Shown in pieces: positions 12,277-54,833 of a DNA stretch of 64,000 bases (position 1 is the stretch's first letter; each line of letters starts with the position of its first letter). The stretch spans positions 111,149 through 175,148 of the IMG/VR virus record IMGVR_UViG_3300038856_000064; one strand, 5' to 3'. The notes under the pieces are model-generated. The model searched no databases. It saw only the letters and a program-made list of their open reading frames with translations, and had not been told where the DNA came from. A program made the position numbers and the translations under genes. The DNA is from a virus.

Positions 12277-13806
12277 TTATCGAATAATAAATTCCCACCT
12301 CTGCTTTGGTGGAACTATAACCTTAATAAGACCCAGAGAATTCGCATAATTTGACTCAGACTGGCCAGCAGGAACTCTACACTTACTTTTGTGATATTCG
12401 TTACCCTCTTGATCGATATAGATATAATCGGACCTCATTTTATTATCAACTAGAATAAAATTACAGGCTTTATAGAGGGTGCCGCCATGATGGCGAGGGT
12501 CGTGCCAACTTACTACCTTACCGCGATAACCTGTCTTCTTTAACCATCTTAAGGACCTGGCAACCATCCATGAGGTCGTATTATTGTATGGGTGCGGCAA
12601 TCTAACTCTGTCAAAAATAGCGCAACGATTGAGACAAACCGACTTTTCATGAGGATTGGCGACACCGCCAAATGTCACGACACCACAAAGTATATCGTTA
12701 TAGTAAAACCCAAGACGATGCTTGTCACGTCCAGACGCCGACTTGAGATAATGTACGCGACGCAGAAAATCGTCTGCTATAACCTTATTTATTTCCCTAA
12801 CCTCAAATCTATAGTTATGCTTTATTCGTAAGCAAAGCTTATCCAATACATCATCCTTGCTGGTCAATATTATGTAGTTGAATTGATTGTCTTTATAGTA
12901 TTGAATTTTCTCGGCAAACTTATCTGGCCGCTTGCGCGACTCACCAAGACCGTCATACTCGACCCATAGATCTTGATTTGGTAAGTAAAAGTCACAAGTC
13001 CATTTACGATCTTCACAAACCCTCTTATGCGGTTCGTAATCAATAAAATTCTGGTACAACAAATCAGCCAATCGCTTCTCTTCTATGGAGTCATAAAATG
13101 TATTATCATTACCTAGTTGCCTTTTATCGACATCGATATTAGCCAACTCAAGTATTTCCTTCCAGCTCTTGTTTGGGAAACGCTTATAATAACACGAATT
13201 ATTAATATTCTGATTAGAAGATAACTCCTCGTGTTTTAAACGACCTAGTAACTCATTGTCTGTTTTCTTAACGCCAGATCGTGATACCTCAAGCCCCGCC
13301 TCCCTCAATGCATTTGGCCAACTACCGAATTTTCTACGTATTGTTTCAGCACTATACAATGTATTCGCCTGTTTATATTTTTCAATAGTTAGTATTCCGT
13401 CACACTCCTTCGATGCACTTATTAGAGCTTCAACTAATTCCTTTTTTGTTGAGCCATATACCCTATTTGGCTTAATCCCAGCAATTTGAAGTCCCTTAAC
13501 CCAACTACCGAAATGCCTTTCTACTGCCGTAAGCTTTACCCCTCCCTCTACCCTAAATAAGTCTGAATTATTGCTACCAGTTTTATCATAGAAGTCTCTA
13601 ATGGCTTGTATTACCTCCTCATCTGTATAATTTTTTCTAGATGTAGGTAACCCTGCCTCTACCACAGCATTATTCCAACTACCAAACTCTTTATTCACTA
13701 TGAAGCGACTATATTTAGTATCAGCTTCATCATATAGCTTTCGAGTAATTTTACCATGCTGACTAAAAACACCTTTAATGTCCGATATTATTTCTTGTTT
13801 ACTCAT
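12277..13806 (-). CDS. Homing-endonuclease-like protein: HNH-associated repeats + PD-(D/E)XK nuclease + Mom-like GNAT domain
   Basis: Repeats ending FGSWxxA/GL..AG (x3, a fourth degenerate); YDSIEE...DFYLP...VEYDG nuclease; HYL...GVVTFG...LNR...SW.VARSL...VSWHDP..HGGTLYKACNF Mom-type motif; AT-rich; inserted after the capsid terminator. Confidence 0.7.
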   Translation of the reverse strand: MSKQEIISDIKGVFSQHGKITRKLYDEADTKYSRFIVNKEFGSWNNAVVEAGLPTSRKNYTDEEVIQAIRDFYDKTGSNNSDLFRVEGGVKLTAVERHFGSWVKGLQIAGIKPNRVYGSTKKELVEALISASKECDGILTIEKYKQANTLYSAETIRRKFGSWPNALREAGLEVSRSGVKKTDNELLGRLKHEELSSNQNINNSCYYKRFPNKSWKEILELANIDVDKRQLGNDNTFYDSIEEKRLADLLYQNFIDYEPHKRVCEDRKWTCDFYLPNQDLWVEYDGLGESRKRPDKFAEKIQYYKDNQFNYIILTSKDDVLDKLCLRIKHNYRFEVREINKVIADDFLRRVHYLKSASGRDKHRLGFYYNDILCGVVTFGGVANPHEKSVCLNRCAIFDRVRLPHPYNNTTSWMVARSLRWLKKTGYRGKVVSWHDPRHHGGTLYKACNFILVDNKMRSDYIYIDQEGNEYHKSKCRVPAGQSESNYANSLGLIKVIVPPKQRWEFIIR

Positions 13807-20412: not shown

Positions 20413-20612
20413 TTGATGGGACGTTCTACCTTCCATCCATCAGGATAACGCTCATCCCATTCTCTTTTTAGGCGATCTGATTGTTCTCTTGAGTAGATGA
20501 TGGCTCTTTTAACCGGCTCACTCTCCGGATGTGGCGGCAACTTATTTCTCGCGCACAACAAATAACACTCAAGAATGTATGGATAATTTGGCTCGCTGTC
20601 TGCATTCATCAA
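20409..20612 (-). CDS. Hypothetical protein
   Basis: 67-aa ORF overlapping the terminase stop. Confidence 0.45.
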   Translation of the reverse strand: MMNADSEPNYPYILECYLLCARNKLPPHPESEPVKRAIIYSREQSDRLKREWDERYPDGWKVERPIN

Positions 20613-23600
20613 TAAATAACTCCTCCCTTTCGATTCATGGGGGTGTACCCCATCCCTCGACGCGGGGCATTCTTCAAAATATCTTGTGGTGTCCCACCGT
20701 AGGCTTTACCCCAAGATTTCTCATGTCCGTGTCCCTTAATAACTCTGGCTGCATGTGCGGCAAGTAGTAAGGCACTATAACGATCTCGACGACGGACATC
20801 TAGCCCATCAGGCTGATCACTCAATTTCTGTAATCCAAAACCTTCTGTACCCTTCTCTGTTACCGTCTGGACAATCGTGCATAATTCATTAGTAAGCTCT
20901 TGCATTTCTTTATAGGCACCTAAAGTAATAGGATCTCCATCATCATTTTCCGTACCATAGAGAAGGTTGTTAATATGCTCGACACACGCGATATGTTCAT
21001 TATCCTCATAATCAAATTCGGGCACGTCTAATAGTCTTTTTGCATGCTTTTCCATCACAATATCATCGTCGAGACGTCCAGGAAATATGACATTTTTCAT
21101 AATAAAGTCACGCTTTAAATTATGATTTGCTGGAACAGCCCAGGTATGGAAGTTGACCATTTCAAGGATGCGGCGAGCATTTGGGATTGCCTTATAATCA
21201 TCGCTTGGCTCAATTTCAATAATCGGCTGCTCGCCCTCCCTTAAGTATTTGGCGCTGGCTAACATTTCTTGAACGGTGTCGCCGCCACCACCTTTATCGC
21301 AAGCTATATAAGTAATGTTGGGGAACCTAGCTAATGCATCCTTAATACGATCAATACTCACTTCCCATTTAGACTTATTCCAACTATCACAATAAACCAC
21401 TTGGGCTGTTGTACCCACAAGCTTAAGGATGACTAAGCCGAAATTGTCATTCCAACGAGCAGGGTCGAGTCCCATAACATACTGAAACCCCGGTTCGCCA
21501 AACAGTTCATAATGAAATTCCTCAGGGTTTCCTTTACCTGGAGAGGCTGCATCAATAATAGAACGTGGGAAAAATCCATTAGTGTCTTTGCTAAATTTAC
21601 ATTCATATTCATGTCCAAAAATAACTGGATCCATAATTGCCTTATGGTTTGCTACGATATCACTATCTAAGAACCCCTCGGGCATTGCGTGATATGGTAA
21701 ACTAAATACGGCATACTCGTGCCAAATCTTTTTCCAACGCTCCAGCATCTCATCCGTAACACTTATAGTGCCGTCACGACTCTGGCGACGTAACCCCTCT
21801 TTGATGACCTGGGGATTCCCATTAGACTTAGCAAAAATATTATAAGCCTCGTAACGACGAAAGAAGTGACTAAACTGATAGGTCGCAGTTCCTGATAATA
21901 CTAGTTGGTTACCTCCACCTCGGCGCTCTTCTTCGATCTTGCCTATAATCTCTTCGTTCGCACCAAGCTTGCGTAAACGCGCTATAAACTCTTGGACAAT
22001 GACAGCTTCTGAGGGGTCAGCCTTAACAGAAAGGAACGGACCAATTGCTGTGTCGAATACCTGATCATCAATAGACGCAACTTCATCACAAACCAGAGTA
22101 GTATTATGATTCTTTATACCATTCCCGATAAAAGAATGTGACTCTGGAATTTCAAAATCATAAAGAATATGCTTGCCATCTAGCTTTTCAACACTCCTTA
22201 TAACCTTTTCTGTTTTTTCTTTACAAAACCTAATATCTAAATCTGCCTTTTTGTATACCTCAACAAAACGACTTGGTCGAATGGTATTAATAAACTTCAT
22301 CATCTGCACACCGTTAATACGTAGCATGTATTGCGGATGATCACTTAACTTACTTGACCTACTCGTCCTACTACACATAATACCTAGCTTTAGTAATAGA
22401 ACCTGAACATCCTTTCCTAGTTGCTCACTAGCGGTGTAATAAGAAATTCCTAAATTGTTTTCTCTAGTCTTATCCTTATATAGATAGGCAGTCCCATCTC
22501 CATCAAATAATCCAGTTAGGAATGAAATAACCTCATCTCTTGAACCATTCAAAATCGCAGCAGGAATCTTTTTAAATCGTGCAGTAGAATAACCTAGGCC
22601 GATTTCACTCTCTAGCCATTGACGTTGTTTCAGATTACCAAAATGAATTTCATACGACGGTTTGCTTGTCCACCCCCTAGGGTCTTCTCGTGGCGGACAA
22701 TAATACCTACTAGCTTTGCCAAATTTATCTATTGCAATTTGCTCAACTCTATCACAGAATTCTCCTACAGCATTCTTAACAGAAATTCTATACTTATTAG
22801 AGCAACATCCTTCAGAAATTACAGCCCCAAGCAACCAAGCTAGATCTACTCCAAGTTTTTCTTCACTATTAAACTTACCGCCCAACTCTAGTGGCAAAAA
22901 ATCCTTACTTGGTTGTAGCTTAACAGCATCCTTCCACCCCTTAGTTGTCCACAAACGATGAATATCAGAACATACAACCTCATATCCACATTCTGTTGTT
23001 ATTTTATACGCATCGATAGGACATGTCTTAACGAATTTACTAGGTGCAGCAAACTTACCATTACCATAATGAAGTGTTATATCTTCAGGATTATCGACTA
23101 TGTCTTTAATTCTACGCAAGCCATTATTAGTTTCTACTATAGTTGTTGGCTCTACGCATGCACGCATTCCTCGGACCTTAGAGCCATCTCCTACGGGAAT
23201 TCCGGTGATCTCAGTATTATGCCCAACCTTCAAATAAACCTTATCAGTAGCAAATTTAACACCAAAACTATTACCTGGATGAAACTTGCGGATCGTCTCC
23301 TCAATAATTGGACTACTCTTAATAATCTCATCAATATACTGAAAAGTAAACTTAGCCTGACGAAAACCACCAGAGACGATCACTACCTTTGTCCCTGGAA
23401 CAAGAAGGCATTTCAAAATACAATAAACCGCAAGCATATATGTTTTGCCAGCCCCACGACAAGCTAACACCATAGGAAACTTCTTTGCCCACATCATCTG
23501 AAGCATCACACTTTGGAAAGGTAATAATCGAAGTGGATCGCCGAACTTATTCCGAAATACAAGCTCAACAAATTTAGTCAGACTAATATCGGACACACGA

Positions 23601-23692
23601 TTAACTATATACGGATATTCTTTTTGGTCGTGTATATAGAGACTGTCACGAATTTTAGTTTCGTCAGTAATTATTTTAGTTTGGACAGACAT
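20609..23692 (-). CDS. terL: Terminase large subunit (intein-containing)
   Basis: Q motif LLPFQ, Walker A ACRGAGKT, Walker B LVCDE, motif III SGT, RNase H nuclease MGLDPA..D, DKGGGG, RDRYSA. Confidence 0.95.
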   Translation of the reverse strand: MSVQTKIITDETKIRDSLYIHDQKEYPYIVNRVSDISLTKFVELVFRNKFGDPLRLLPFQSVMLQMMWAKKFPMVLACRGAGKTYMLAVYCILKCLLVPGTKVVIVSGGFRQAKFTFQYIDEIIKSSPIIEETIRKFHPGNSFGVKFATDKVYLKVGHNTEITGIPVGDGSKVRGMRACVEPTTIVETNNGLRRIKDIVDNPEDITLHYGNGKFAAPSKFVKTCPIDAYKITTECGYEVVCSDIHRLWTTKGWKDAVKLQPSKDFLPLELGGKFNSEEKLGVDLAWLLGAVISEGCCSNKYRISVKNAVGEFCDRVEQIAIDKFGKASRYYCPPREDPRGWTSKPSYEIHFGNLKQRQWLESEIGLGYSTARFKKIPAAILNGSRDEVISFLTGLFDGDGTAYLYKDKTRENNLGISYYTASEQLGKDVQVLLLKLGIMCSRTSRSSKLSDHPQYMLRINGVQMMKFINTIRPSRFVEVYKKADLDIRFCKEKTEKVIRSVEKLDGKHILYDFEIPESHSFIGNGIKNHNTTLVCDEVASIDDQVFDTAIGPFLSVKADPSEAVIVQEFIARLRKLGANEEIIGKIEEERRGGGNQLVLSGTATYQFSHFFRRYEAYNIFAKSNGNPQVIKEGLRRQSRDGTISVTDEMLERWKKIWHEYAVFSLPYHAMPEGFLDSDIVANHKAIMDPVIFGHEYECKFSKDTNGFFPRSIIDAASPGKGNPEEFHYELFGEPGFQYVMGLDPARWNDNFGLVILKLVGTTAQVVYCDSWNKSKWEVSIDRIKDALARFPNITYIACDKGGGGDTVQEMLASAKYLREGEQPIIEIEPSDDYKAIPNARRILEMVNFHTWAVPANHNLKRDFIMKNVIFPGRLDDDIVMEKHAKRLLDVPEFDYEDNEHIACVEHINNLLYGTENDDGDPITLGAYKEMQELTNELCTIVQTVTEKGTEGFGLQKLSDQPDGLDVRRRDRYSALLLAAHAARVIKGHGHEKSWGKAYGGTPQDILKNAPRRGMGYTPMNRKGGVIY
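22103..23158 (-). mobile_element. 352-aa intein with LAGLIDADG homing endonuclease in terL
   Basis: RGMRA|CVEPTT...HN|TTLVCDE; block B CSDIHRL; LLGAVISEG and LTGLFDGDG; block F YDFEI. Confidence 0.95.
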
Positions 23693-31880: not shown

Positions 31881-31908
31881 TTGACATCTAGAAAGTTTAT
31901 GGTATACT
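31881..31908 (+). promoter_or_regulatory. sigma70-type early promoter TTGACA-N16-TATACT
   Basis: Consensus with extended TG; ATG 5 nt after the -10. Confidence 0.8.
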
Positions 31909-31913
31909 GTCAT

Positions 31914-32276
31914 ATGGACATCATCGAATTCCACGGCATCGGAATCGAATTCACCTACTACGGAGCCGAACGCTACGGAGCCGAACGCGGGCGCCCCACG
32001 TACGCGACCCTCGACGACTACTACGTCTCAAATTGGGACGATTTCGCCGCACATTGGAGTGCAACCCGCTGGTTCGGGCCGACTCTCCAGGCGATGCTCG
32101 ACACCATCGTTGACGAGTTCGCCGATAAGATCGAACAGGAGGCAATCGACTGCTCGCAGGAGCCCGAGCCCGAGTACGACCCGTACGAAGACAGCGACTA
32201 CGACTACGACGATGGTCCGTCATGTACGGGTGGAGACTACTGGCGGAATGACGCTGGTGAGTGGAGACTCGGATAA
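31914..32276 (+). CDS. Acidic hypothetical early protein (leaderless)
   Basis: Asp/Glu/Tyr-rich C-terminus. Confidence 0.65.
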   Translation: MDIIEFHGIGIEFTYYGAERYGAERGRPTYATLDDYYVSNWDDFAAHWSATRWFGPTLQAMLDTIVDEFADKIEQEAIDCSQEPEPEYDPYEDSDYDYDDGPSCTGGDYWRNDAGEWRLG

Positions 32277-32398
32277 TCCGGACATCTAGAGATGCGCGCG
32301 GAACACCGCGCCCTCTCGGGCTTGCGGGCGACATATCGGGCGAATATTTGACTTCTAAAATTGACTACTAGCAGGTTTTGTGATATCCTTTCACTGAA

Positions 32399-32650
32399 AT
32401 GAGCAGAACCAGACGCAAGATTCCCCCGGAATGGTCAGATGCTGAGTGGATCGATGGTTACGATCCCGCTCGCGACCACGACAGTTACGGGCGACATATC
32501 CCGAACTACTTGAAGCGATATATCGGGATCGGATCGGACAACTACGGGTGTGCCTGTTGCTTTCCGGGTCCGAAGTCTCGTAAAGAGAAGATTCGGTCCG
32601 CCAAACGCAAGGAAAAGCGGGAAGCAATGAAACAGATTCTCGACATCTAG
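32399..32650 (+). CDS. Basic hypothetical early protein
   Basis: GCACC motif and Arg/Lys-rich tail. Confidence 0.6.
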   Translation: MSRTRRKIPPEWSDAEWIDGYDPARDHDSYGRHIPNYLKRYIGIGSDNYGCACCFPGPKSRKEKIRSAKRKEKREAMKQILDI

Positions 32651-32673
32651 AAAAGATTGTGATATACTTCAGC

Positions 32674-32877
32674 ATGAACGCCACGAAACAGATCGACTGG
32701 AATGCGGTCGAAAAACGTGCCGCCGAAATGTCGACGCTTTCGCTCCGCTTCGCCCTAGTGGACATCCACGAAACTCTCCCCCATGCCGACGATCTCGATA
32801 GACTGGACGGTGGCAATCGCGGTGGATACTATCGCGATGAGGCTTCGATCTACTGGCGTGAATTGAAAAAACGGTAA
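32674..32877 (+). CDS. Hypothetical early protein (leaderless)
   Basis: TATACT-N5-ATG; ends GYYRDE..Y..ELKKR. Confidence 0.65.
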   Translation: MNATKQIDWNAVEKRAAEMSTLSLRFALVDIHETLPHADDLDRLDGGNRGGYYRDEASIYWRELKKR

Positions 32878-32919
32878 GATTCCATTTGACATCTAGATGG
32901 TCTGAGGTATCATACTTCT

Positions 32920-33099
32920 ATGACGAACGATACACATAACGGCCTGACCTTCAAGCAATGGCTTGCGAAGGTCGACGAGATCCTGACTCGCGAAATCGGA
33001 ATCTCGCATGCAGACATCGCCCGTCACCTAGCAAAAGCAGAGGTACAAGAGCGTTTCGGATACGAAGCCGATGCGATCGACGATTGCGACTTCGACTAG
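32920..33099 (+). CDS. 59-aa hypothetical early protein (leaderless)
   Basis: Not in the track; follows TTGACA promoter at 32886; MTNDTHNGLTFKQWLAKVDEIL... Confidence 0.6.
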   Translation: MTNDTHNGLTFKQWLAKVDEILTREIGISHADIARHLAKAEVQERFGYEADAIDDCDFD

Positions 33100-33127
33100 G
33101 AACATCGGGTAGATAATTCTGCCCACT

Positions 33128-33160
33128 AGCCTCGGGGAGAAGGGACCCCTGGGGCTTTTT
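33128..33160 (+). terminator. Intrinsic terminator
   Basis: AGCCTCGGGG/CCCTGGGGCT + TTTT. Confidence 0.75.
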
Positions 33161-33257
33161 GTGTACAGCGCGACAACTCGCGCTTGCCTCCGACATATCG
33201 CGAAAGTATTTGACTGCTAAATTTGACTTCTGGGGAAGTTTGTGATACACTTAGATA

Positions 33258-33628
33258 TGGAAAAGCTCACAGCGCAAAACGTCGCGGACATCGCCTATCG
33301 CTACTATGCGAATGGTGGAAAATCTGGACACACTCCGGGAGACCGTTCGCCTGATGGGTGCACGTATTTCCGCTCCGATGGCGGTCGGTGTGCGATCGGT
33401 GCGGTACTGGATCACTTGGGGTATACTAAAAAGGATCTGGGCGATCACAATGAGCTGACTACGGTCTCGATGCTTTTCGACGAACTACCCGGTATCCGCG
33501 AAAAATTCAGTTGCGATGTCGAATTTCTGGAAAGTCTCCAGCGAGCGCACGACGGATCAGAACGCGACGATGAAATTCCGGAACGAATCCGCTGGACTTG
33601 TCGCGATCACGGAGTATACTTGAGATAA
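33258..33628 (+). CDS. Conserved phage hypothetical protein (CxY...RCAIG...LQxAHD)
   Basis: Motifs as named; leaderless start. Confidence 0.65.
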
Positions 33629-33676
33629 CTTCAAAGCACCTAGAGGCGGAACTAGGCTAAATCCGCATTTCTTTTA

Positions 33677-33789
33677 GGGGTAGATAGGTTTTTGACATCT
33701 AGAATACGGTTTGGATACCAGCCGCGAAAAGCCCAACGCAAAAACGCGGTTTGTCTAGATGGACCCGAGTTCAATTCTCGGCTACTCCA
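33677..33789 (+). ncRNA. Mini tmRNA-like RNA 1 (tRNA-like domain only, 113 nt)
   Basis: Acceptor GGGGTAG/CTACTCC-A with G3:U wobble; D-loop ATAGGTTTTTGAC; helix CATCTAGA/TCTAGATG; GAC linker; T-arm CCGAG-TTCAATT-CTCGG. Confidence 0.8.
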
Positions 33790-33796
33790 TAAATTC

Positions 33797-33899
33797 GTTA
33801 GAGCGCGACATATTGGAATAGTAAGGTTCGCACAAACTTACTAGGACAATGGTGCGGGGCGGTGTGCGCCGCAAGTAGGTTCGATTCCTACCTCTAACA
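33797..33899 (+). ncRNA. tRNA-like RNA without a canonical anticodon arm (103 nt)
   Basis: 7-bp acceptor GTTAGAG/CTCTAAC-A; T-arm GTAGG-TTCGATT-CCTAC; long internal hairpin. Confidence 0.7.
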
Positions 33900-34014
33900 T
33901 AAATTCGGGAAGTGTTGAAATAACGACTAGTGGTACCAACCGCTATGGTGTAAAGTCTTATAAGGGCTGAGCACACCCGAAACTTCTTACACGTTAGCTG
34001 TCAACACAATTTGA

Positions 34015-34067
34015 GAGCCCTGACCCGAGTAGCTTAGAAATAGGCTTCTGGAGTTAGGGCTTTTTTT
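34015..34067 (+). terminator. Terminator closing the first ncRNA array
   Basis: AGCCCTGAC/GTTAGGGCT + T-tract. Confidence 0.8.
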
Positions 34068-34214
34068 ATCTGATACACCCGAGCCTCTCGGGCATGCTTC
34101 CGACATATCGAGAAAAGGTTTGACTTTCTGACACCTAGATAAGAAGTGAGAGTATACTTTCAACATGACCGAACACAGGAACTCATCGACGAACTGTGGT
34201 GAGTGGAATTCAGC

Positions 34215-34242
34215 TTGACAACTAGAACAACTAGGGTATACT
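34215..34242 (+). promoter_or_regulatory. sigma70-type promoter for the second ncRNA unit
   Basis: TTGACA-N16-TATACT. Confidence 0.75.
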
Positions 34243-34386
34243 TCTCCATGCGAAAGATCAAAGCGCCTACTGGCCGTAGGAAAAGGGCGCGATAACATAA
34301 ATACCTCCTATGCGGCATACCGGGTTTCCGGTACCCCGACGAAAAGAGTAGCCAGATATATCGGGGTTTGATAACTCTGGCAATAA

Positions 34387-34454
34387 GGGAGTGACAGGTT
34401 TAGGCAACTAGTGAATACTATGTTGTAACGTGGGTTCGATTCCCACCACTTCCA
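34387..34454 (+). ncRNA. Mini tmRNA-like RNA 2 (tRNA-like domain only, 68 nt)
   Basis: Acceptor GGGAGTG/CACTTCC-A with G3:U; D-loop ACAGGTTTAG; closed 9-bp helix with GAAT loop; AAC linker; T-arm GTGGG-TTCGATT-CCCAC. Confidence 0.78.
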
Positions 34455-34769
34455 TAAAGCCCTAGGTGGACGCAAGTCGCATACTAGGTTGATACTGCCG
34501 GTTTGGGTTATACCGGAGGAAGGTTCAACCTAGGGTGGTAACCTTGACCGGACCAAGCTAGATGGTCAAAATAACCACTTTTTACCTCAGGTGATACACC
34601 CGATCCTCTCTGCCATGCCGCGCGCATATCGCAACTATATCAGACACCTCCTCCCCTCCTCAAGTATATCGCAACCCTGGAGAAAAGTCAAGTATTATTT
34701 TGAGAACATCTAGGTGCTTTTCCACCCTGCTTTTCTTGCCATCTTCGACAAGTCATGTATACTTAGGGC

Positions 34770-35048
34770 ATGAGCAAGAACAACACGAACATCGGGAAGT
34801 TTCTCACCGATCTGGCAAGCAAGGCATCTCCGCTGAACGCGCAAGCTATCGCGGACTTGCAAGACAAGATGCGCGCAGAGAAGGTAGTGGAATTGGAGCG
34901 CAGGATCCGTCACGTTCTGAAATGCATCAACACCGAAGTCACCGAACTGCGTACCCTCCGCAAGCGTGAGGCGGAGACCAAAAAGCGCATCAAGGATTTG
35001 GAGAAGCTCGCGAACGACATCGTCACCGGAAAGGACATCGACGACTAG
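34770..35048 (+). CDS. Coiled-coil early protein (leaderless)
   Basis: TTGCCA-N16-TATACT promoter; hammerhead directly after the stop. Confidence 0.7.
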   Translation: MSKNNTNIGKFLTDLASKASPLNAQAIADLQDKMRAEKVVELERRIRHVLKCINTEVTELRTLRKREAETKKRIKDLEKLANDIVTGKDIDD

Positions 35049-35050
35049 CC

Positions 35051-35113
35051 TGTTATACTGACGAGATCCGGGCAAAAGGATCGAAACTAGGCATAGCCTA
35101 GTCTATAATGCCT
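35051..35113 (+). ncRNA. Type I hammerhead ribozyme
   Basis: Core CTGACGA (35058-64), stem II GATCC/GGATC, GAAA, stem III CTAGGC/GCCTAG, GTC cleavage site (after 35103), stem I TTATA/TATAA, loop-II pseudoknot GGGCA/TGCCT. Confidence 0.92.
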
Positions 35114-35250
35114 ATAAAATGGGGGTTTGACCAAGTGCTAAGTGCCAAAATGGTTGAATCCCGTGCCAGTGACATTATCGTTCAATAGTGTCCAGTGCAA
35201 AAGCAGACAACTAGAGTCTCGGGTGCCAGTCACCTGAGGCTCTTTCGTTT
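35104..35250 (+). ncRNA. Putative sRNA with five GUGCHA motifs, released by the hammerhead
   Basis: Three hairpins, no ORF, ends in terminator AGAGTCTCGGGTG/CACCTGAGGCTCT-TTCGTTT. Confidence 0.55.
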
Positions 35251-35567
35251 ATACACCGAAACAACTCGCGCTTGCCTGCCAAACATATTTTATATCAGCG
35301 AGACTCGCCCCTCCTAAGTATATCATAAGATAGGGGAATGTCAAGAACAACTAGAATAAATATTAGCACGATACCCTACCGCGCACGTACGCGCGAATAT
35401 CACAAGATCCGCAATTTGTCAAGCTCGTAAGAGATATTTTCTCAGAATGATTTCTAGGTGATTTTGGATCCATTCACTTGCTTTTCGTTCGAACTAGGGT
35501 ATATTGATTGTGGCTAGCGCAACGGAGCGCATAAGCAAACACAAAACCCGAACACGAGGATACAAGA

Positions 35568-36113
35568 ATGGACGAACAGAACATCACCACCGACGACGTC
35601 GAAAACTTCGATGTCACCGAACAGAACGACGACAGGCAACGACGCGAGCGGAGAACGCCAGCTCAGATTATCGCCGATTTGGAAGCCGAGATTGCGGCAC
35701 GAAAGGCCGCTCTGGACGGCAAGATCGATACGAGTACCGAGCACGGTCTCGGCAAGGCTCTGCGGAACGCACGACGCAAGCGCAATACCGCGCTGAAGGC
35801 CGCACAGGTCATCGTCGAAGGAATCCCCGCCAGCGACGGTAAGGGCTGGACTCGCAAACCGATGTCCGAGACGATCAAAAACACCGAAAAGCGCTTGGAG
35901 TCGCAACGCGAGACTCTGAACCGAGCGGAGTACCAGCGCGCCGATCTGCCGACGTGGATCGCTCGCCTGGACTCTCTCCTGGAAGCCCTCGAAAGGGGCG
36001 ACGACGTCGAATTCCCGCGCGATATGCCGCCCCTCGAAAATGAGAAGGACCGCTCTGCCGAGGAGCACGAGGCGGCTTTCTACGCGAAGAGTCAGGAAGG
36101 CGACGACGCCTGA
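35568..36113 (+). CDS. Charged coiled-coil early protein
   Basis: GAGGA RBS, strong codon bias, terminator follows. Confidence 0.75.
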   Translation: MDEQNITTDDVENFDVTEQNDDRQRRERRTPAQIIADLEAEIAARKAALDGKIDTSTEHGLGKALRNARRKRNTALKAAQVIVEGIPASDGKGWTRKPMSETIKNTEKRLESQRETLNRAEYQRADLPTWIARLDSLLEALERGDDVEFPRDMPPLENEKDRSAEEHEAAFYAKSQEGDDA

Positions 36114-36121
36114 TCCCCTGG

Positions 36122-36157
36122 GGGAGTCTCTATAAGGGACTCCCATTCTCTTTTTTT
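36122..36157 (+). terminator. Intrinsic terminator
   Basis: GGGAGTCTCT/AGGGACTCCC + T-tract. Confidence 0.75.
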
Positions 36158-36174
36158 GTGTGGTATACTTAGGT

Positions 36175-36480
36175 ATGCAAACGACAACTAGACAACGGAC
36201 CGTATCGCGAATCGGCTTACACCGCGCGACGCAATTCCTCTGGAATGAAACGCAAGGGCTGATCTTTTCGTGCTACTTTCGCAAGAAGGACGGCACGATG
36301 CGCGAGATGGTCTGCCGACGCGGTGTCAAAAAGCATTTACGCGGCGGATCGCTCCCCTACGACGCAAAGGCAAACAATCTACTGCCAGTGTTCGATATGA
36401 CTCTCGGCGAGTACCGAACGGTAAATCTCGCCACTCTGGTTTCCTTCAATTTCGGTGACGAAACTTTCGTTGTAATGTAG
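36175..36480 (+). CDS. SH3/WYL-like (DUF2693-type) protein
   Basis: FSCYFRKKDGTMREM..VFDM..EYRTVN. Confidence 0.7.
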   Translation: MQTTTRQRTVSRIGLHRATQFLWNETQGLIFSCYFRKKDGTMREMVCRRGVKKHLRGGSLPYDAKANNLLPVFDMTLGEYRTVNLATLVSFNFGDETFVVM

Positions 36481-36512
36481 CGCCCTCATTCTATCATCCG
36501 AGAATGCTGGTG

Positions 36513-36568
36513 TGCCGGAGGCGGTTGTTCTTTCCAGAGATCATCCCCGTCTCCGGCATTTTTTGTTT
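36513..36568 (+). terminator. Intrinsic terminator
   Basis: TGCCGGAGGCGG/CCGTCTCCGGCA + TTTTTT. Confidence 0.8.
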
Positions 36569-36674
36569 GAAACAGCGCGACAACTCGCGCTATGCCTGCC
36601 ACATATCGTCCTATAATGAGACACGTTTTGACCACCTAATTTGACATCTAGATGATTTTGGGGTATACTAAATC

Positions 36675-37016
36675 ATGCAAGATAAGAACAAATGGCATCG
36701 GCGCACTACGGCGTTTATGGGACAAGTCGCAAAGGAACTCGGTATCCCGAGAAACAAACGCACAATCCACTCAAATAAAGGTGGAAATGCGGTAGGTGGC
36801 GAAGTGACGATGAGCGCACCGGAATTCGGTGTATACGTTCACCTAACGTGCCCAGTCAATTCCTACGGTATGGAAGATCGGATCGGAAGCAACTACGTAC
36901 GACGAGCAACGGCAGACGATCCCTACGGTACCGCGATCGACAAACAAAACCATTTTCTCACTACTCAACTAAACCCGACAGAGATAGCTGATTTTTGTAG
37001 AAAGATCGTCACCTAG
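36675..37016 (+). CDS. Conserved hypothetical protein (SNKGGxAVxGEVT motif)
   Basis: TTGACA-N17-TATACT promoter at 36641; leaderless. Confidence 0.7.
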   Translation: MQDKNKWHRRTTAFMGQVAKELGIPRNKRTIHSNKGGNAVGGEVTMSAPEFGVYVHLTCPVNSYGMEDRIGSNYVRRATADDPYGTAIDKQNHFLTTQLNPTEIADFCRKIVT

Positions 37017-37039
37017 ATAATCTTGGGGTATACTTACGC

Positions 37040-37231
37040 ATGACTACCCTTTACACTCTAGTAGAAATTCGTCCGAACGGACACGAAACCGAGCTTTACC
37101 TCGGAACGAAACTGAAGGACGGGACCCGAACCAAGTATACGGTAGATGGTAATATTGCCTACCAGACCCAAAAGAAGTGGGAAGAGGCAAATCCAAACTA
37201 CCGATACGAAGTTAGACTAATGAACATCTAG
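37040..37231 (+). CDS. Hypothetical protein (leaderless)
   Basis: TATACT-N5-ATG. Confidence 0.6.
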   Translation: MTTLYTLVEIRPNGHETELYLGTKLKDGTRTKYTVDGNIAYQTQKKWEEANPNYRYEVRLMNI

Positions 37232-37238
37232 AGGAATC

Positions 37239-37703
37239 ATGACAGAACGCGTACAAGCTGCCAGGAAGATCACGCACGACACTTTGGCCGAATACGATCT
37301 ATACGATCGGGGTTGGCGATTCAAGCTAACCCGCGGCAAGAACACTCTTGGATGGTGCAACTATAAGGATAAGACGATCGGCATTTCGTCTCACCTTATC
37401 GAGAACGGCACGATCGAGGAAATCGCAAACACGATCATTCACGAAATTGCCCACGCCAGAACTCCCGGCGAGAATCACGGATGGAAGTGGCGAGCAGTCG
37501 CTAGGGAAATGGGTCTGAAAAATCCGGGTCCATATACGAAAATCTCTTACGAACTACCGCATAAATACGAACTTAGGTGCGGTGTTCATGGCACTATCGA
37601 AAAGCGCCACCGACGTAGCAAACCCGAAAAACTTGCTAGGATCTATTGCCGAAAGTGTGGATCTGGCAGTGTCGGAACCCTTAGGCTTGTGGAGGTCAAC
37701 TAG
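37239..37703 (+). CDS. SprT-like zinc metalloprotease
   Basis: LGWC, HEIAH, HGWKW, C-terminal Zn ribbon. Confidence 0.9.
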   Translation: MTERVQAARKITHDTLAEYDLYDRGWRFKLTRGKNTLGWCNYKDKTIGISSHLIENGTIEEIANTIIHEIAHARTPGENHGWKWRAVAREMGLKNPGPYTKISYELPHKYELRCGVHGTIEKRHRRSKPEKLARIYCRKCGSGSVGTLRLVEVN

Positions 37704-37988
37704 ATGGATATCGACGACATTTTTCCCCCTGAAGATCAATGGAAGCGCGAAGCAGACTTCCGGCACCATATCGAGCAGAAAAATCAAATGGACGATTTAC
37801 TCTGCGGCGCTATTGATCCGATCAAGGTCGGTGACCGAGTTATGTATCGAGAGGATACAAGTCTAGGTGCCGGTACAATCATTCACATTGCCCTATCGAG
37901 ATACCCTTATAGGGTACGATGGGATGACGATAGTTACGTGGATATTGTAGACTGGTACTACGGAGACCAACTAATCAAAGCTACGTAA
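37704..37988 (+). CDS. SH3-like hypothetical protein
   Basis: KVGDRV...YRVRWDD. Confidence 0.55.
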   Translation: MDIDDIFPPEDQWKREADFRHHIEQKNQMDDLLCGAIDPIKVGDRVMYREDTSLGAGTIIHIALSRYPYRVRWDDDSYVDIVDWYYGDQLIKAT

Positions 37989-38176
37989 TGAATAGGCGCG
38001 AGACACCGCGCCTACTCTGCCTTGCCGCCCACATATCGCCATATATAGCGAAGCCTGCCCCTCCCTTCTATTATACCACGGGGAATCAGAAAAGCAACTA
38101 GAAAATAAGGAAATCTAAGGTCGGGATTCCTAGGTGCTTCACTTGCCATTCTCAGCATCGTGCGGTATACTTCGAC

Positions 38177-38347
38177 ATGAGCAAAAAGCATTTCGAGGCA
38201 ATCGCTAAGCTGGTGCGCGAAGCCGATTACTTGACTGACGACCAACAACGTATTCTTGCTAATCAGCTCTCTTACGTGCTGGAAAATAGCAATATGTTGT
38301 TTGATCCGGAGCGTTTTATCGAGGCAGCGACGACTAAGGACAACTAG
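38177..38347 (+). CDS. 56-aa conserved phage protein (MSKKHFEAIA...FDPERFIEA)
   Basis: Not in the track; TTGCCA-N17-TATACT promoter; leaderless. Confidence 0.7.
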   Translation: MSKKHFEAIAKLVREADYLTDDQQRILANQLSYVLENSNMLFDPERFIEAATTKDN

Positions 38348-53426: not shown

Positions 53427-53453
53427 GGGCTAGGTGTGTGGTATACTACAAAC

Positions 53454-54833
53454 ATGAACACGATCCCAGACAAGGCCCGCAGAGTCATGGATTTGCTCCA
53501 GAACCGTTACAATTGCGGTGAGGGTGCGAATTCAGTTAAGGCTTTGGTTGTAGGTGGTTTCGTTCGTGACTCACTACTAGGTGTCCAAAGTAAGGATATC
53601 GATATTGAGGTCTACAATATGGACCTAGATACGATTGCCTGGGCTCTACGTAACGAGGGCTTTAAGGTCGATGCTGTCGGTAAGGCTTTCGGCGTGCTCA
53701 AGATTGATAACGAACTGGACATTTCGGTCCCGCGACGCGAAAACAAGGTTGGCGTTGGTCATCGTGGCTTCAATGTCGAACCCGATCCGAATATGAGCGT
53801 CGAGGAGGCGGCTAGTCGCCGAGATTTTACGATCAATTCAATGGCTATGGATCTAGACGGTAATATTATCGACCCACATCATGGGCAAACGGATCTAGAT
53901 GTACGTTGTCTCCGAGCAACGTCTCCTAATACGTTTATTGAAGATCCTCTGCGCGTAATGAGAGGAATGCAATTTGCGTCTCGTTTCAGTATGTGGATTC
54001 ATCCAGATACGGAACATCTTTGTCGTCAAATGGCTCCACAGAAGTCTGAGCTTCCTAAGGAAAGAATCTGGGAAGAGTGGAAGAAGTGGGCTCTTAAGGG
54101 CGTAAAGCCTTCCGACGGACTCATGATTATGTTTTACTCTCATTGGCTCGATCCCGAAATTAAGGTACTGTATAAAACTCCACAAGATCCAGAATACCAT
54201 CCTGAGGGGAATGTATTTATCCATACGTGTCATGTTGTAGATGCTGCTGCTGAAATTGCAGAAAGAGAGCAACTAGAAGATAATGATAGGTTGGTGCTTA
54301 TGTTCGCGGCGCTTTGCCACGACTTCGGCAAGCCGTCCACGACGACGTTTGAGCGTGGCAGGTGGCGCGCTAAGGGGCACTCTCAGGCTGGCGTAGAGCC
54401 GGCACGGGCATTCCTAGAGCGCATTGGTGCGCCTTCTGGGGTCATTCTAGAGGTTCTTCCACTAATCCAGGAGCATCTCGTACATGCAGGGATTGATAAC
54501 CCGTCACCTAGAGCAATCCGGAGGCTAGCTAATCGTATCGCACCATCTAATATCAACGCACTGAGTAGGCTTATCGAAGCAGATCATTCTGGCCGCCCTC
54601 CATTGCCTAAGGGGAATCCTTTTCTGGCATGGGTTAAGAGGGCTAATGAACTTAATGTTTCTAGTAGTAAGCCGCAGGCTATTCTGCTTGGTCGTCATCT
54701 TATCGAGATGGGTATGAAGCCAGGTATCGATATGGGGGTGGTTCTAAAGAGGGCATTCCAGGCGCAACTAGATGGCGACTTTGATAATATTGATAATGCA
54801 AAAGAGTGGGTTAAAAACCAAGGAGAAGCTTAA
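53454..54833 (+). CDS. cca: Class II tRNA nucleotidyltransferase (CCA-adding type) with HD domain
   Basis: VGGFVRD..DIDIEV, RRDFTIN, EDPLR, ERIWEE, QDPEYHPEGNV..H, LCHDFGK; leaderless start. Confidence 0.92.
   Translation: MNTIPDKARRVMDLLQNRYNCGEGANSVKALVVGGFVRDSLLGVQSKDIDIEVYNMDLDTIAWALRNEGFKVDAVGKAFGVLKIDNELDISVPRRENKVGVGHRGFNVEPDPNMSVEEAASRRDFTINSMAMDLDGNIIDPHHGQTDLDVRCLRATSPNTFIEDPLRVMRGMQFASRFSMWIHPDTEHLCRQMAPQKSELPKERIWEEWKKWALKGVKPSDGLMIMFYSHWLDPEIKVLYKTPQDPEYHPEGNVFIHTCHVVDAAAEIAEREQLEDNDRLVLMFAALCHDFGKPSTTTFERGRWRAKGHSQAGVEPARAFLERIGAPSGVILEVLPLIQEHLVHAGIDNPSPRAIRRLANRIAPSNINALSRLIEADHSGRPPLPKGNPFLAWVKRANELNVSSSKPQAILLGRHLIEMGMKPGIDMGVVLKRAFQAQLDGDFDNIDNAKEWVKNQGEA

Follow-up and report, generated by a model that had tools for sequence, protein, structure and literature searches.

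A conserved early phage module of a small protein gene, a hammerhead ribozyme and an RNA with GUGC boxes

Introduction

What does a hammerhead ribozyme do when it stands directly behind a small early phage gene and directly ahead of a repeat-bearing stretch that ends in a terminator? A role in the processing of polycistronic transcripts has been proposed for bacterial and phage hammerheads (PMC3088659, PMC6765202), and the purpose of the thousands now known from bacteria and phages is still open (PMC6765202). We evaluated this question at a locus in a 64-kb window (by which we mean the whole stretch of DNA analysed), the terminal part of a 175,148-bp uncultured virus record, for which a sequence-only reading had proposed that the ribozyme frees a sponge-like small RNA from an early mRNA.

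An early cassette in an island of RNA mimics

The structural genes of this phage lie on the minus strand up to ~30.5 kb of the window, and from there onward the plus strand carries an early region of raised G+C that is organized in short cassettes. Early promoters are near-consensus and host-type (TTGACA-N16/17-TATACT, window 31900-38180), and in that same interval the ATG of nine early genes, including the one that we call ORF92, sits 5-6 nt past the TATACT. Given this spacing in nine cases, the early mRNAs are probably leaderless or nearly so, and the ORF92 mRNA, judged by its own promoter-to-ATG distance, would be leaderless or close to it. Across the whole genome, a Shine-Dalgarno-like motif precedes about half of the longer ORFs. 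Cassettes are divided by a ~40-nt repeat (family D1), and the module considered here occupies the cassette at 34592-35288, with the following boundaries, promoter and gene:

34592..34631, plus strand: upstream copy of the inter-cassette repeat D1, bounding the module
34736..34763, plus strand: sigma-70-type early promoter, TTGCCA-N16-TATACT, 6 nt ahead of the ORF92 ATG
34770..35048, plus strand: ORF92, 92 aa, predicted single long helix, of an unannotated family of ~90-aa proteins
35249..35288, plus strand: downstream copy of D1, which also stands behind the module in relatives L155 and L161

The neighbourhood is an island of tmRNA and tRNA mimics that resemble host-directed RNAs. Two leaderless micro-ORFs lie there behind consensus promoters (34165-34218, 17 codons; 34248-34295, 15 codons, the latter ahead of mini-tmRNA 2), and the codon usage of both is unlike that of coding sequence. 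Strong minus-strand promoters are present in the inter-cassette spacers (35344-35317 and 34691-34663, as well as in relatives L022, L023 and L028), where they point back through the D1 repeat at the terminator of the preceding cassette; the one at 35344 would yield an RNA antisense to the 3' end of the GUGC-box RNA described below. Elsewhere on the minus strand of the window, a large terminase ORF of 1027 aa (20609-23692) also matches helicase and HNH endonuclease families, these extra matches suggesting an inserted element, and a 509-aa ORF (12277-13806) has Mom-like and HNH/homing endonuclease matches.

A type I hammerhead directly behind ORF92

The sequence-only reading had placed a complete type I hammerhead 2 nt past the stop codon of ORF92 (TAG, 35046-35048), and both its full core and its three stems can be read from the sequence, together with a GUC site that ends at C35103, after which cleavage is predicted.

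35048..35051, plus strand: GCCU, the 5' strand of a pseudoknot with GGGC of loop II (35070-35073), whose position and pairing covary in 10 relatives
35051..35110, plus strand: type I hammerhead ribozyme, predicted cut C35103/U35104, from sequence reading, descriptor and leave-one-out model

Stem I pairs 35051-35057 with 35104-35110 (7 bp, the outer two G.U), stem II pairs 35065-35069 with 35078-35082 (5 bp) beneath an 8-nt loop II (GGGCAAAA, 35070-35077), and stem III pairs 35086-35092 with 35096-35102 (7 bp); the core strands are CUGACGA at 35058-35064 and GAA at 35083-35085. All consensus positions are present, namely C3 U4 G5 A6 N7 G8 A9, G12 A13 A14, the A15.1-U16.1 pair (A35086-U35102) and a non-G at position 17. 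A strict descriptor matched this site alone on both strands of the 175,148-bp genome, and 150 dinucleotide-preserving shuffles of the genome gave 0.04 relaxed matches per genome, the best of them with 15 stem pairs against 19 in the phage. The hammerhead fold has a predicted energy of -16.1 kcal/mol against a local optimum of -19.0, and stems II and III appear in the optimal fold of the minimal hammerhead segment.

Rfam returned no hammerhead at gathering threshold in the window (RF03152 reached 20.2 of 56.3 bits, and RF00163 had no match at E<=10), the hammerhead of relative L161 reached 24.3 of 34 bits, and every hammerhead match obtained at gathering and E-value thresholds from the window and the loci of 15 relatives fell below threshold. 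Such a score is a failure against a curated model, not against the chemistry that defines the class. The comparative evidence comes from 11 loci, in which the core is retained and the stems differ by compensatory substitutions: positions 2-4 of stem II change pair type (2-4 types each, all canonical) and positions 2-8 of stem III vary while keeping at least 90% canonical pairs. A model built from nine relatives with this phage left out (R1) gave one match in the window, at 35045-35111, with 44.8 bits and an E-value of 1.3e-7. The covariation and the leave-one-out match show that the hammerhead is real and under selection, and we infer self-cleavage at 35103/35104 in vivo; hammerhead cleavage yields a 2',3'-cyclic phosphate and a 5'-OH (PMC8782182).

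A loop-II pseudoknot had likewise been proposed. Its existence held and it covaries, with its partner placed by the comparative data 5' of stem I (GCC(U), 35048-35051) rather than at the alternative 3' partner UGCCU (35109-35113), which the single sequence of this phage also allows. Wherever loop II is long, which is the case in 10 members, its 5' part pairs with the nucleotides that directly precede stem I, over 4-7 bp and each time with a different sequence (mean 5.4 bp versus 3.5 bp for shuffled loops), and in this phage itself the pairing is only 3-4 bp. Pseudoknots of this type, between loop II and the flank of stem I, have been described for about 40% of hammerheads (PMC3088659). The paired arms (5' arm/loop II) include:

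This phage: GCCU/GGGC
L155 and L157: CGCCC/GGGCG
L159: AGUCC/GGACU
L160: AGCCC/GGGCU
L165: CUUCG/CGAAG
L173: AGUCG/CGACU
L174: CGUCG/CGACG

The hammerheads of the last two (L173:724-804 and L174:535-620) have an A opposite an A at 10.1/11.1 (CUGAUGA-A...A-GAAAC) and keep the pseudoknot.

A conserved RNA with GUGC boxes lies downstream of the predicted cut

Cleavage at the predicted site would release the following RNA and its elements:

35104..35250, plus strand: 3' cleavage product, a structured RNA of 147 nt with a presumed 5'-OH, from fold and homology to relatives, ending at the intrinsic terminator
35122..35162, plus strand: hairpin P1, 12 bp, GGGG...CCC, whose loop holds double box 1, GUGCUAAGUGCCA (35135-35147)
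35163..35173, plus strand: double box 2, GUGCCAGUGAC, directly past P1 and aligning with GUGCYU-N-RYGCCRAAUC of relatives
35171..35192, plus strand: hairpin 2, 8 bp, z-score -2.95, flanked by GUGC at 35163 and GUGC at 35195
35213..35250, plus strand: intrinsic terminator, z-score -4.85, a 13-bp stem (35213-35243) and a U tract

The three hairpins that had been read from the sequence, the last of them a terminator, appear in the fold as two hairpins and a strong terminator, and the z-score of the product is -1.9 when the terminator is left out and -4.3 when it is included. All five of the GTGC(C/T/A)A motifs that had been counted are in place (35135, 35142, 35163, 35195, 35223), the last opening a third GUGCCAGUCAC box in the loop region of the terminator (35223-35233). 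No other 150-nt window of the genome holds more than three of these motifs, and five copies of some 6-mer, which is the post-hoc-corrected comparison, are reached by 0.7% of shuffles and, among real windows of the genome, by 2%. The count in this phage alone is only modestly unusual, and it is conservation that makes the motif convincing.

The sequence-only reading had staked its sponge on repeats conserved in relatives and had suggested looking for homologous small RNAs; both were found, in that the 3' products of relatives lie behind their ORF92 homologs and GUGC boxes recur in them. The first ~70 nt of these products align among this phage, L155, L161, L164, L157, L159 and L160 (52% mean column identity) and share a plan of an AU-rich tail, a GGG...CCC hairpin, a double box in its loop and a second box past the hairpin. 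The GGG/CCC pairs at the base of P1 are present in all 7 aligned sequences, and the inner stem differs from phage to phage; RNAalifold supports the base of P1 alone, the rest of the hairpin aligning too poorly for formal covariation. Among the double boxes in the hairpin loop are:

L155: GUGCCAUCGUGCCAA
L161: GUGCCUUGGUGCCAA
L164: GUGCCUUGUGCCAA

No 4-mer is more over-represented than GUGC in the first 100 nt of nine relatives' 3' products (20 seen versus 4.7 expected), and all nine are independent of the discovery of the motif. Relatives carry 1-4 copies, usually as one or two double boxes with half-sites 6-8 nt apart, and a double box is present in 8 of 10 products, usually in or just past the GGG...CCC hairpin; L165 and L173 have a single GUGC within their first 100 nt, and the sole box of L174 is at +125. 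A sequence-only model built from six relatives, again with this phage left out (R2), gave one match in the window (35105-35166), a weak one at 15 bits and an E-value of 0.0011. The search of the window and the 15 relatives' loci at gathering and E-value thresholds returned no Rfam family for the 3' RNA. These comparisons support a released RNA that is itself conserved and that belongs to a family without an Rfam match. The boxes may instead be structural, with two tetramers pairing through tandem G.U; such GUGC:GUGC self-pairing fits several boxes, but neither box 2 of this phage nor the hairpin tips of L157 and L159.

One earlier claim did not survive, namely that the product contains no ORF: an ATG at 35108, 4 nt past the cut, opens 26 codons to a TAG at 35188. 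This frame is not conserved: relatives keep neither a start codon close to the cut nor a common frame, from which we take the 3' RNA to be non-coding.

Further conserved elements were seen downstream. Past their GUGC boxes, L157 (2470-2550), L159 (540-600) and L160 (2460-2500) share CGGAGCA, a variable hairpin and UGUCCA(G/A)UA(A/C)AG, an element with no Rfam match, and L173 and L174 share a conserved block farther downstream, ACACGCGCGGGC(C/U)UUCAACCCG(A/C)AGUGAAAAUGAGAG.

The ORF92 family and its linkage to the ribozyme and the RNA

A word-indexed protein search had returned ORF92 alone and made it look like an orphan, which a full HMMER search overturned with 55 homologs of ~90 residues at 30-52% identity. 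Neither Pfam nor PHROGs had a family for ORF92, and 30 family members gave only coiled-coil noise in these libraries. The predicted structure of ORF92 is a helix over residues 21-86 (pLDDT 82), and long helices of this kind often associate in pairs. Counted from the sequence, the net charge of the protein is slightly positive.

We looked up 11 of the 55 homologs and could read the downstream sequence of 10, the contig of L154 ending 17 nt past its homolog. Nine of these ten have a type I hammerhead behind the gene, and all three parts (ORF92 gene, hammerhead and GUGC-box RNA), which together define the module in this analysis, occur in this phage and on ten other phage-like contigs. The hammerhead loci are those of L155, L156 (truncated where its contig stops), L157/158, L159, L160, L161, L164, L165, L173 and L174. 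L173 has one extra ORF between the homolog and the hammerhead, and in L162/L163 a terminator takes the hammerhead's place.

L161 has the gene order of this phage (mini-tmRNA, ORF92 homolog, hammerhead, GUGC-box RNA, tRNA, D1-type repeat), and past the repeat it carries homologs of the ORFs at 35568-36113 and 36175-36480. Its GUGC-box RNA runs directly into a tRNA with anticodon CAU (L161:2324-2494), an arrangement in which RNase P would set the 3' end of the RNA and the hammerhead its 5' end. Five other relatives (L157, L159, L160, L164, L165) have a 3' product that continues as the 5' leader of the next gene. The genes 3' of the RNA are unrelated between relatives, and the upstream ORF92 is constant.

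The module is missing from relatives identified by their portal (G001-G004) or through the downstream gene (L028-L031), which retain the mini-tmRNA. Between the mini-tmRNA and the homolog of 35568, the slot that corresponds to window 34592-35288 is filled by the ORF92 module in this phage and L161, is empty in G002, G003, L029 and L031, and in L028 (240-1240) holds another leaderless gene, of 183 aa, in the same promoter and start context (GTATACTTAGGGCATG). When viral contigs were scanned for patterns of the hammerhead including loop II, of the box pairs or of the conserved second box, the outcome was either nothing or chance matches in coding DNA; in genome contigs, a scan for an 11-mer pair gave tandem repeats only and a search for related loci gave nothing. 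One set of such contigs (L040, L052 and L065, from the Planctomycetota MAG BC3.89) carries a 76-nt tandem repeat with GTGCCAGTCAC that is unrelated to the GUGC-box RNA.

What the module may do

To bring these observations together, the reading that we prefer, at a probability of roughly one half, is a conserved early module that yields both the ORF92 mRNA and a freed, protein-binding RNA with GUGC boxes. That the RNA is self-processed, conserved and non-coding is well supported; we infer its end chemistry and its binding of a protein. A single transcript from the host-type promoter would start at or next to the ORF92 ATG and end at the terminator (35213-35250). Just past the stop codon, the pseudoknotted type I hammerhead would fold and cut after C35103, parting an ORF92 mRNA that ends in the ribozyme with a 2',3'-cyclic phosphate from the 147-nt non-coding RNA with its 5'-OH. 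The purpose of the ribozyme would then be to co-produce this RNA with ORF92 while releasing it from a translated mRNA, and the GUGC boxes would be sites for a protein. We favour a protein-binding RNA because half-sites at the observed spacing, twice per RNA, would suit a dimeric or tandem-domain RNA-binding protein. The partner could be ORF92 itself, in a ribonucleoprotein, or a host factor for which the RNA is a decoy; the constant linkage of the 3' RNA to a single small protein gene makes ORF92 an equally plausible candidate. To our knowledge, no protein has been described that recognises pairs of GUGC.

The phage also encodes enzymes that could act on such ends. Outside the window, adjoining genes for RNA end healing and sealing (L032:457-3291, G000:C1:19797-22631) encode a calcineurin-like (metallo)phosphoesterase of 244 aa, an AAA_33 kinase of 154 aa and an Rnl2-type RNA ligase of 357 aa with a PHA02142 OB domain, and no RtcB was found in the phage genome. 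Within the window, 53436-54833 encodes a tRNA nucleotidyltransferase (CCA-adding enzyme) with an HD domain, which together with the mini-tmRNAs and tRNA mimics shows a heavy investment of this phage in RNA ends. The kinase, phosphoesterase and ligase could alter the ends made by the ribozyme, and their action on its products is speculation; the stabilisation by a 5'-OH that had been proposed for the released RNA is conjectural as well.

A more specific version of our preferred reading, which we put forward tentatively and consider less likely than not, is that the GUGC-box RNA and the ORF92-family protein form an undescribed phage ribonucleoprotein or decoy system. It would be carried in islands of tmRNA and tRNA mimics, and its target would be host translation, RNA repair or an RNA-targeting defence. 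In such a system the hammerhead may secure one-to-one co-production, and the phage kinase, phosphoesterase and RNA ligase may act on its ends.

The original proposal, a sponge of the CsrB/RsmZ style in which repeats in the loops titrate a host RNA-binding protein, a toxin or an sRNA, is a reasonable sub-case rather than a finding, and one that we consider unlikely. It draws on the five GUGCHA copies within 147 nt, mostly unpaired in the MFE fold, on the conservation of GUGC in relatives, and on the position of the module inside an island of mimics that look host-directed. However, relatives have few copies, arranged as double boxes instead of many equivalent sites, a layout closer to that of a specific binding site than to a CsrB-type sponge with its many copies; a host-factor sponge would not need the tie to one phage protein gene; and the phage genome contains no complementary target of at least 13 nt.

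Comparable doubt attaches to a role in mRNA metabolism, in which the ribozyme would set a protected 3' end for the ORF92 mRNA and uncouple what lies downstream, with the GUGC-box RNA acting in cis as a leader or UTR element. Such a role is the usual proposal for bacterial hammerheads (PMC6765202), and in the five relatives named above the 3' product extends for 170-300 nt into the gene that follows, without an obvious terminator, an arrangement as a leader that keeps a cis-regulatory role alive. A pattern scan of viral contigs also found three near-identical IMG/VR contigs of an unrelated phage group (L024, L026 and L027) in which a type I hammerhead cuts 7 nt before a GGAGG Shine-Dalgarno and ATG. 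Against it, the RNA of both this phage and L155 stops at a strong terminator that no gene follows, a tRNA comes next in L161, and what stays constant across relatives is the gene upstream of the ribozyme, not the genes downstream.

A riboregulator that base-pairs with host or phage transcripts through the GUGC boxes or the AU-rich 5' tail is improbable. Its unstructured AU-rich 5' tail and terminator 3' end are like those of many trans-acting sRNAs, and the minus-strand promoter at 35344-35317 could supply an antisense partner, but complementarity to other parts of the phage genome reaches 12 nt at most, a length expected by chance, and the conserved elements are short direct repeats instead of a single extended seed.

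Least likely by far is that cleavage makes a near-leaderless mRNA (5'-UAUA-AUG) for a 26-residue peptide (35108-35188), which the 4-nt distance from cut to ATG, the leaderless early genes, a codon-usage score of 0.181 per codon (0.243 +/- 0.135 for true genes) above that of all 26 open frames of the neighbouring non-coding island, and a kinase that could supply the 5' phosphate would favour, but against which 5 of 9 relatives either lack a start codon close to the cut or open no more than 5 codons there (L155 begins AUAUAAAGG), L161 and L165 start 11 nt in with TTG (33 codons) and ATG (18 codons) and share nothing with the frame of this phage, tblastn gave no match, and the codon statistics are weak and post hoc (p about 0.07 with stop-free shuffles, and 0.035). 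Leaderless translation in E. coli needs a 5' phosphate and a terminal AUG (review PMC9031893). We rejected the 26-codon leaderless ORF as a candidate, an ATG at +4 that opens a long frame being present only in this phage.

Relation to known systems

The closest precedent for the ribozyme is the set of pseudoknot-stabilised bacterial and prophage hammerheads (PMC3088659), with which it shares the core, the three-stem junction, the contact between loop II and the flank of stem I, and an intergenic position inside phage polycistronic transcripts. The subfamily described here differs in being tied to one upstream protein family and one downstream RNA family and in scoring below every Rfam hammerhead threshold.

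The 3' RNA resembles the CsrB, RsmZ and CrcZ sponges as a small structured RNA that repeats a short motif and ends in a terminator. Its motif is GUGC(C), whereas theirs is GGA or A-rich, and the many GGA copies in loops that mark the CsrB/RsmZ family are absent from it; its family has 1-5 copies as paired half-sites as opposed to 6-22 equivalent sites, and it would be made by ribozyme cleavage next to a dedicated small protein gene. In type III toxin-antitoxin systems (ToxI, and phage pseudo-ToxI), a protein gene is co-transcribed with a repeat-bearing RNA that binds that protein. The co-transcription of a protein gene with a repeat-bearing RNA is common to both, but here the gene order is reversed, there are no tandem 36-nt repeats, processing would fall to a ribozyme and not to the toxin, and ORF92 has no nuclease domain.

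Theta (HDV-like) ribozymes (PMC10879173) offer a parallel as self-cleaving phage ribozymes that cut out non-coding RNA in islands of tRNAs and ncRNAs; they are of another ribozyme class and accompany tRNAs, whereas the hammerhead here would set the 5' end of a non-tRNA, the 3' RNA of this phage having no tRNA or other Rfam match. RAGATH motifs (PMC11061315) are similar in being conserved, unexplained RNAs just 3' of a protein gene in ribozyme-rich mobile DNA, and RAGATH-18 proved to be the partner RNA of a protein, in the form of the RAGATH-18-derived guide RNAs of IS607 TnpB (PMC11061315). No Rfam RAGATH model matches the 3' RNA, however, and ORF92 is a 90-aa helix rather than a nuclease.

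Implications

The ribozyme itself is of an ordinary, known kind; the fixed three-part module and the RNA with GUGC boxes are in no library that we searched, and this analysis adds one RNA family and one protein family that no library names. With a fixed protein gene upstream and a fixed RNA downstream, the job of a hammerhead becomes directly testable here. Both families reside in the early islands that also contain tRNA mimics and mini-tmRNAs without a tag, a setting that points to a takeover of the host by RNA in large uncultured phages.
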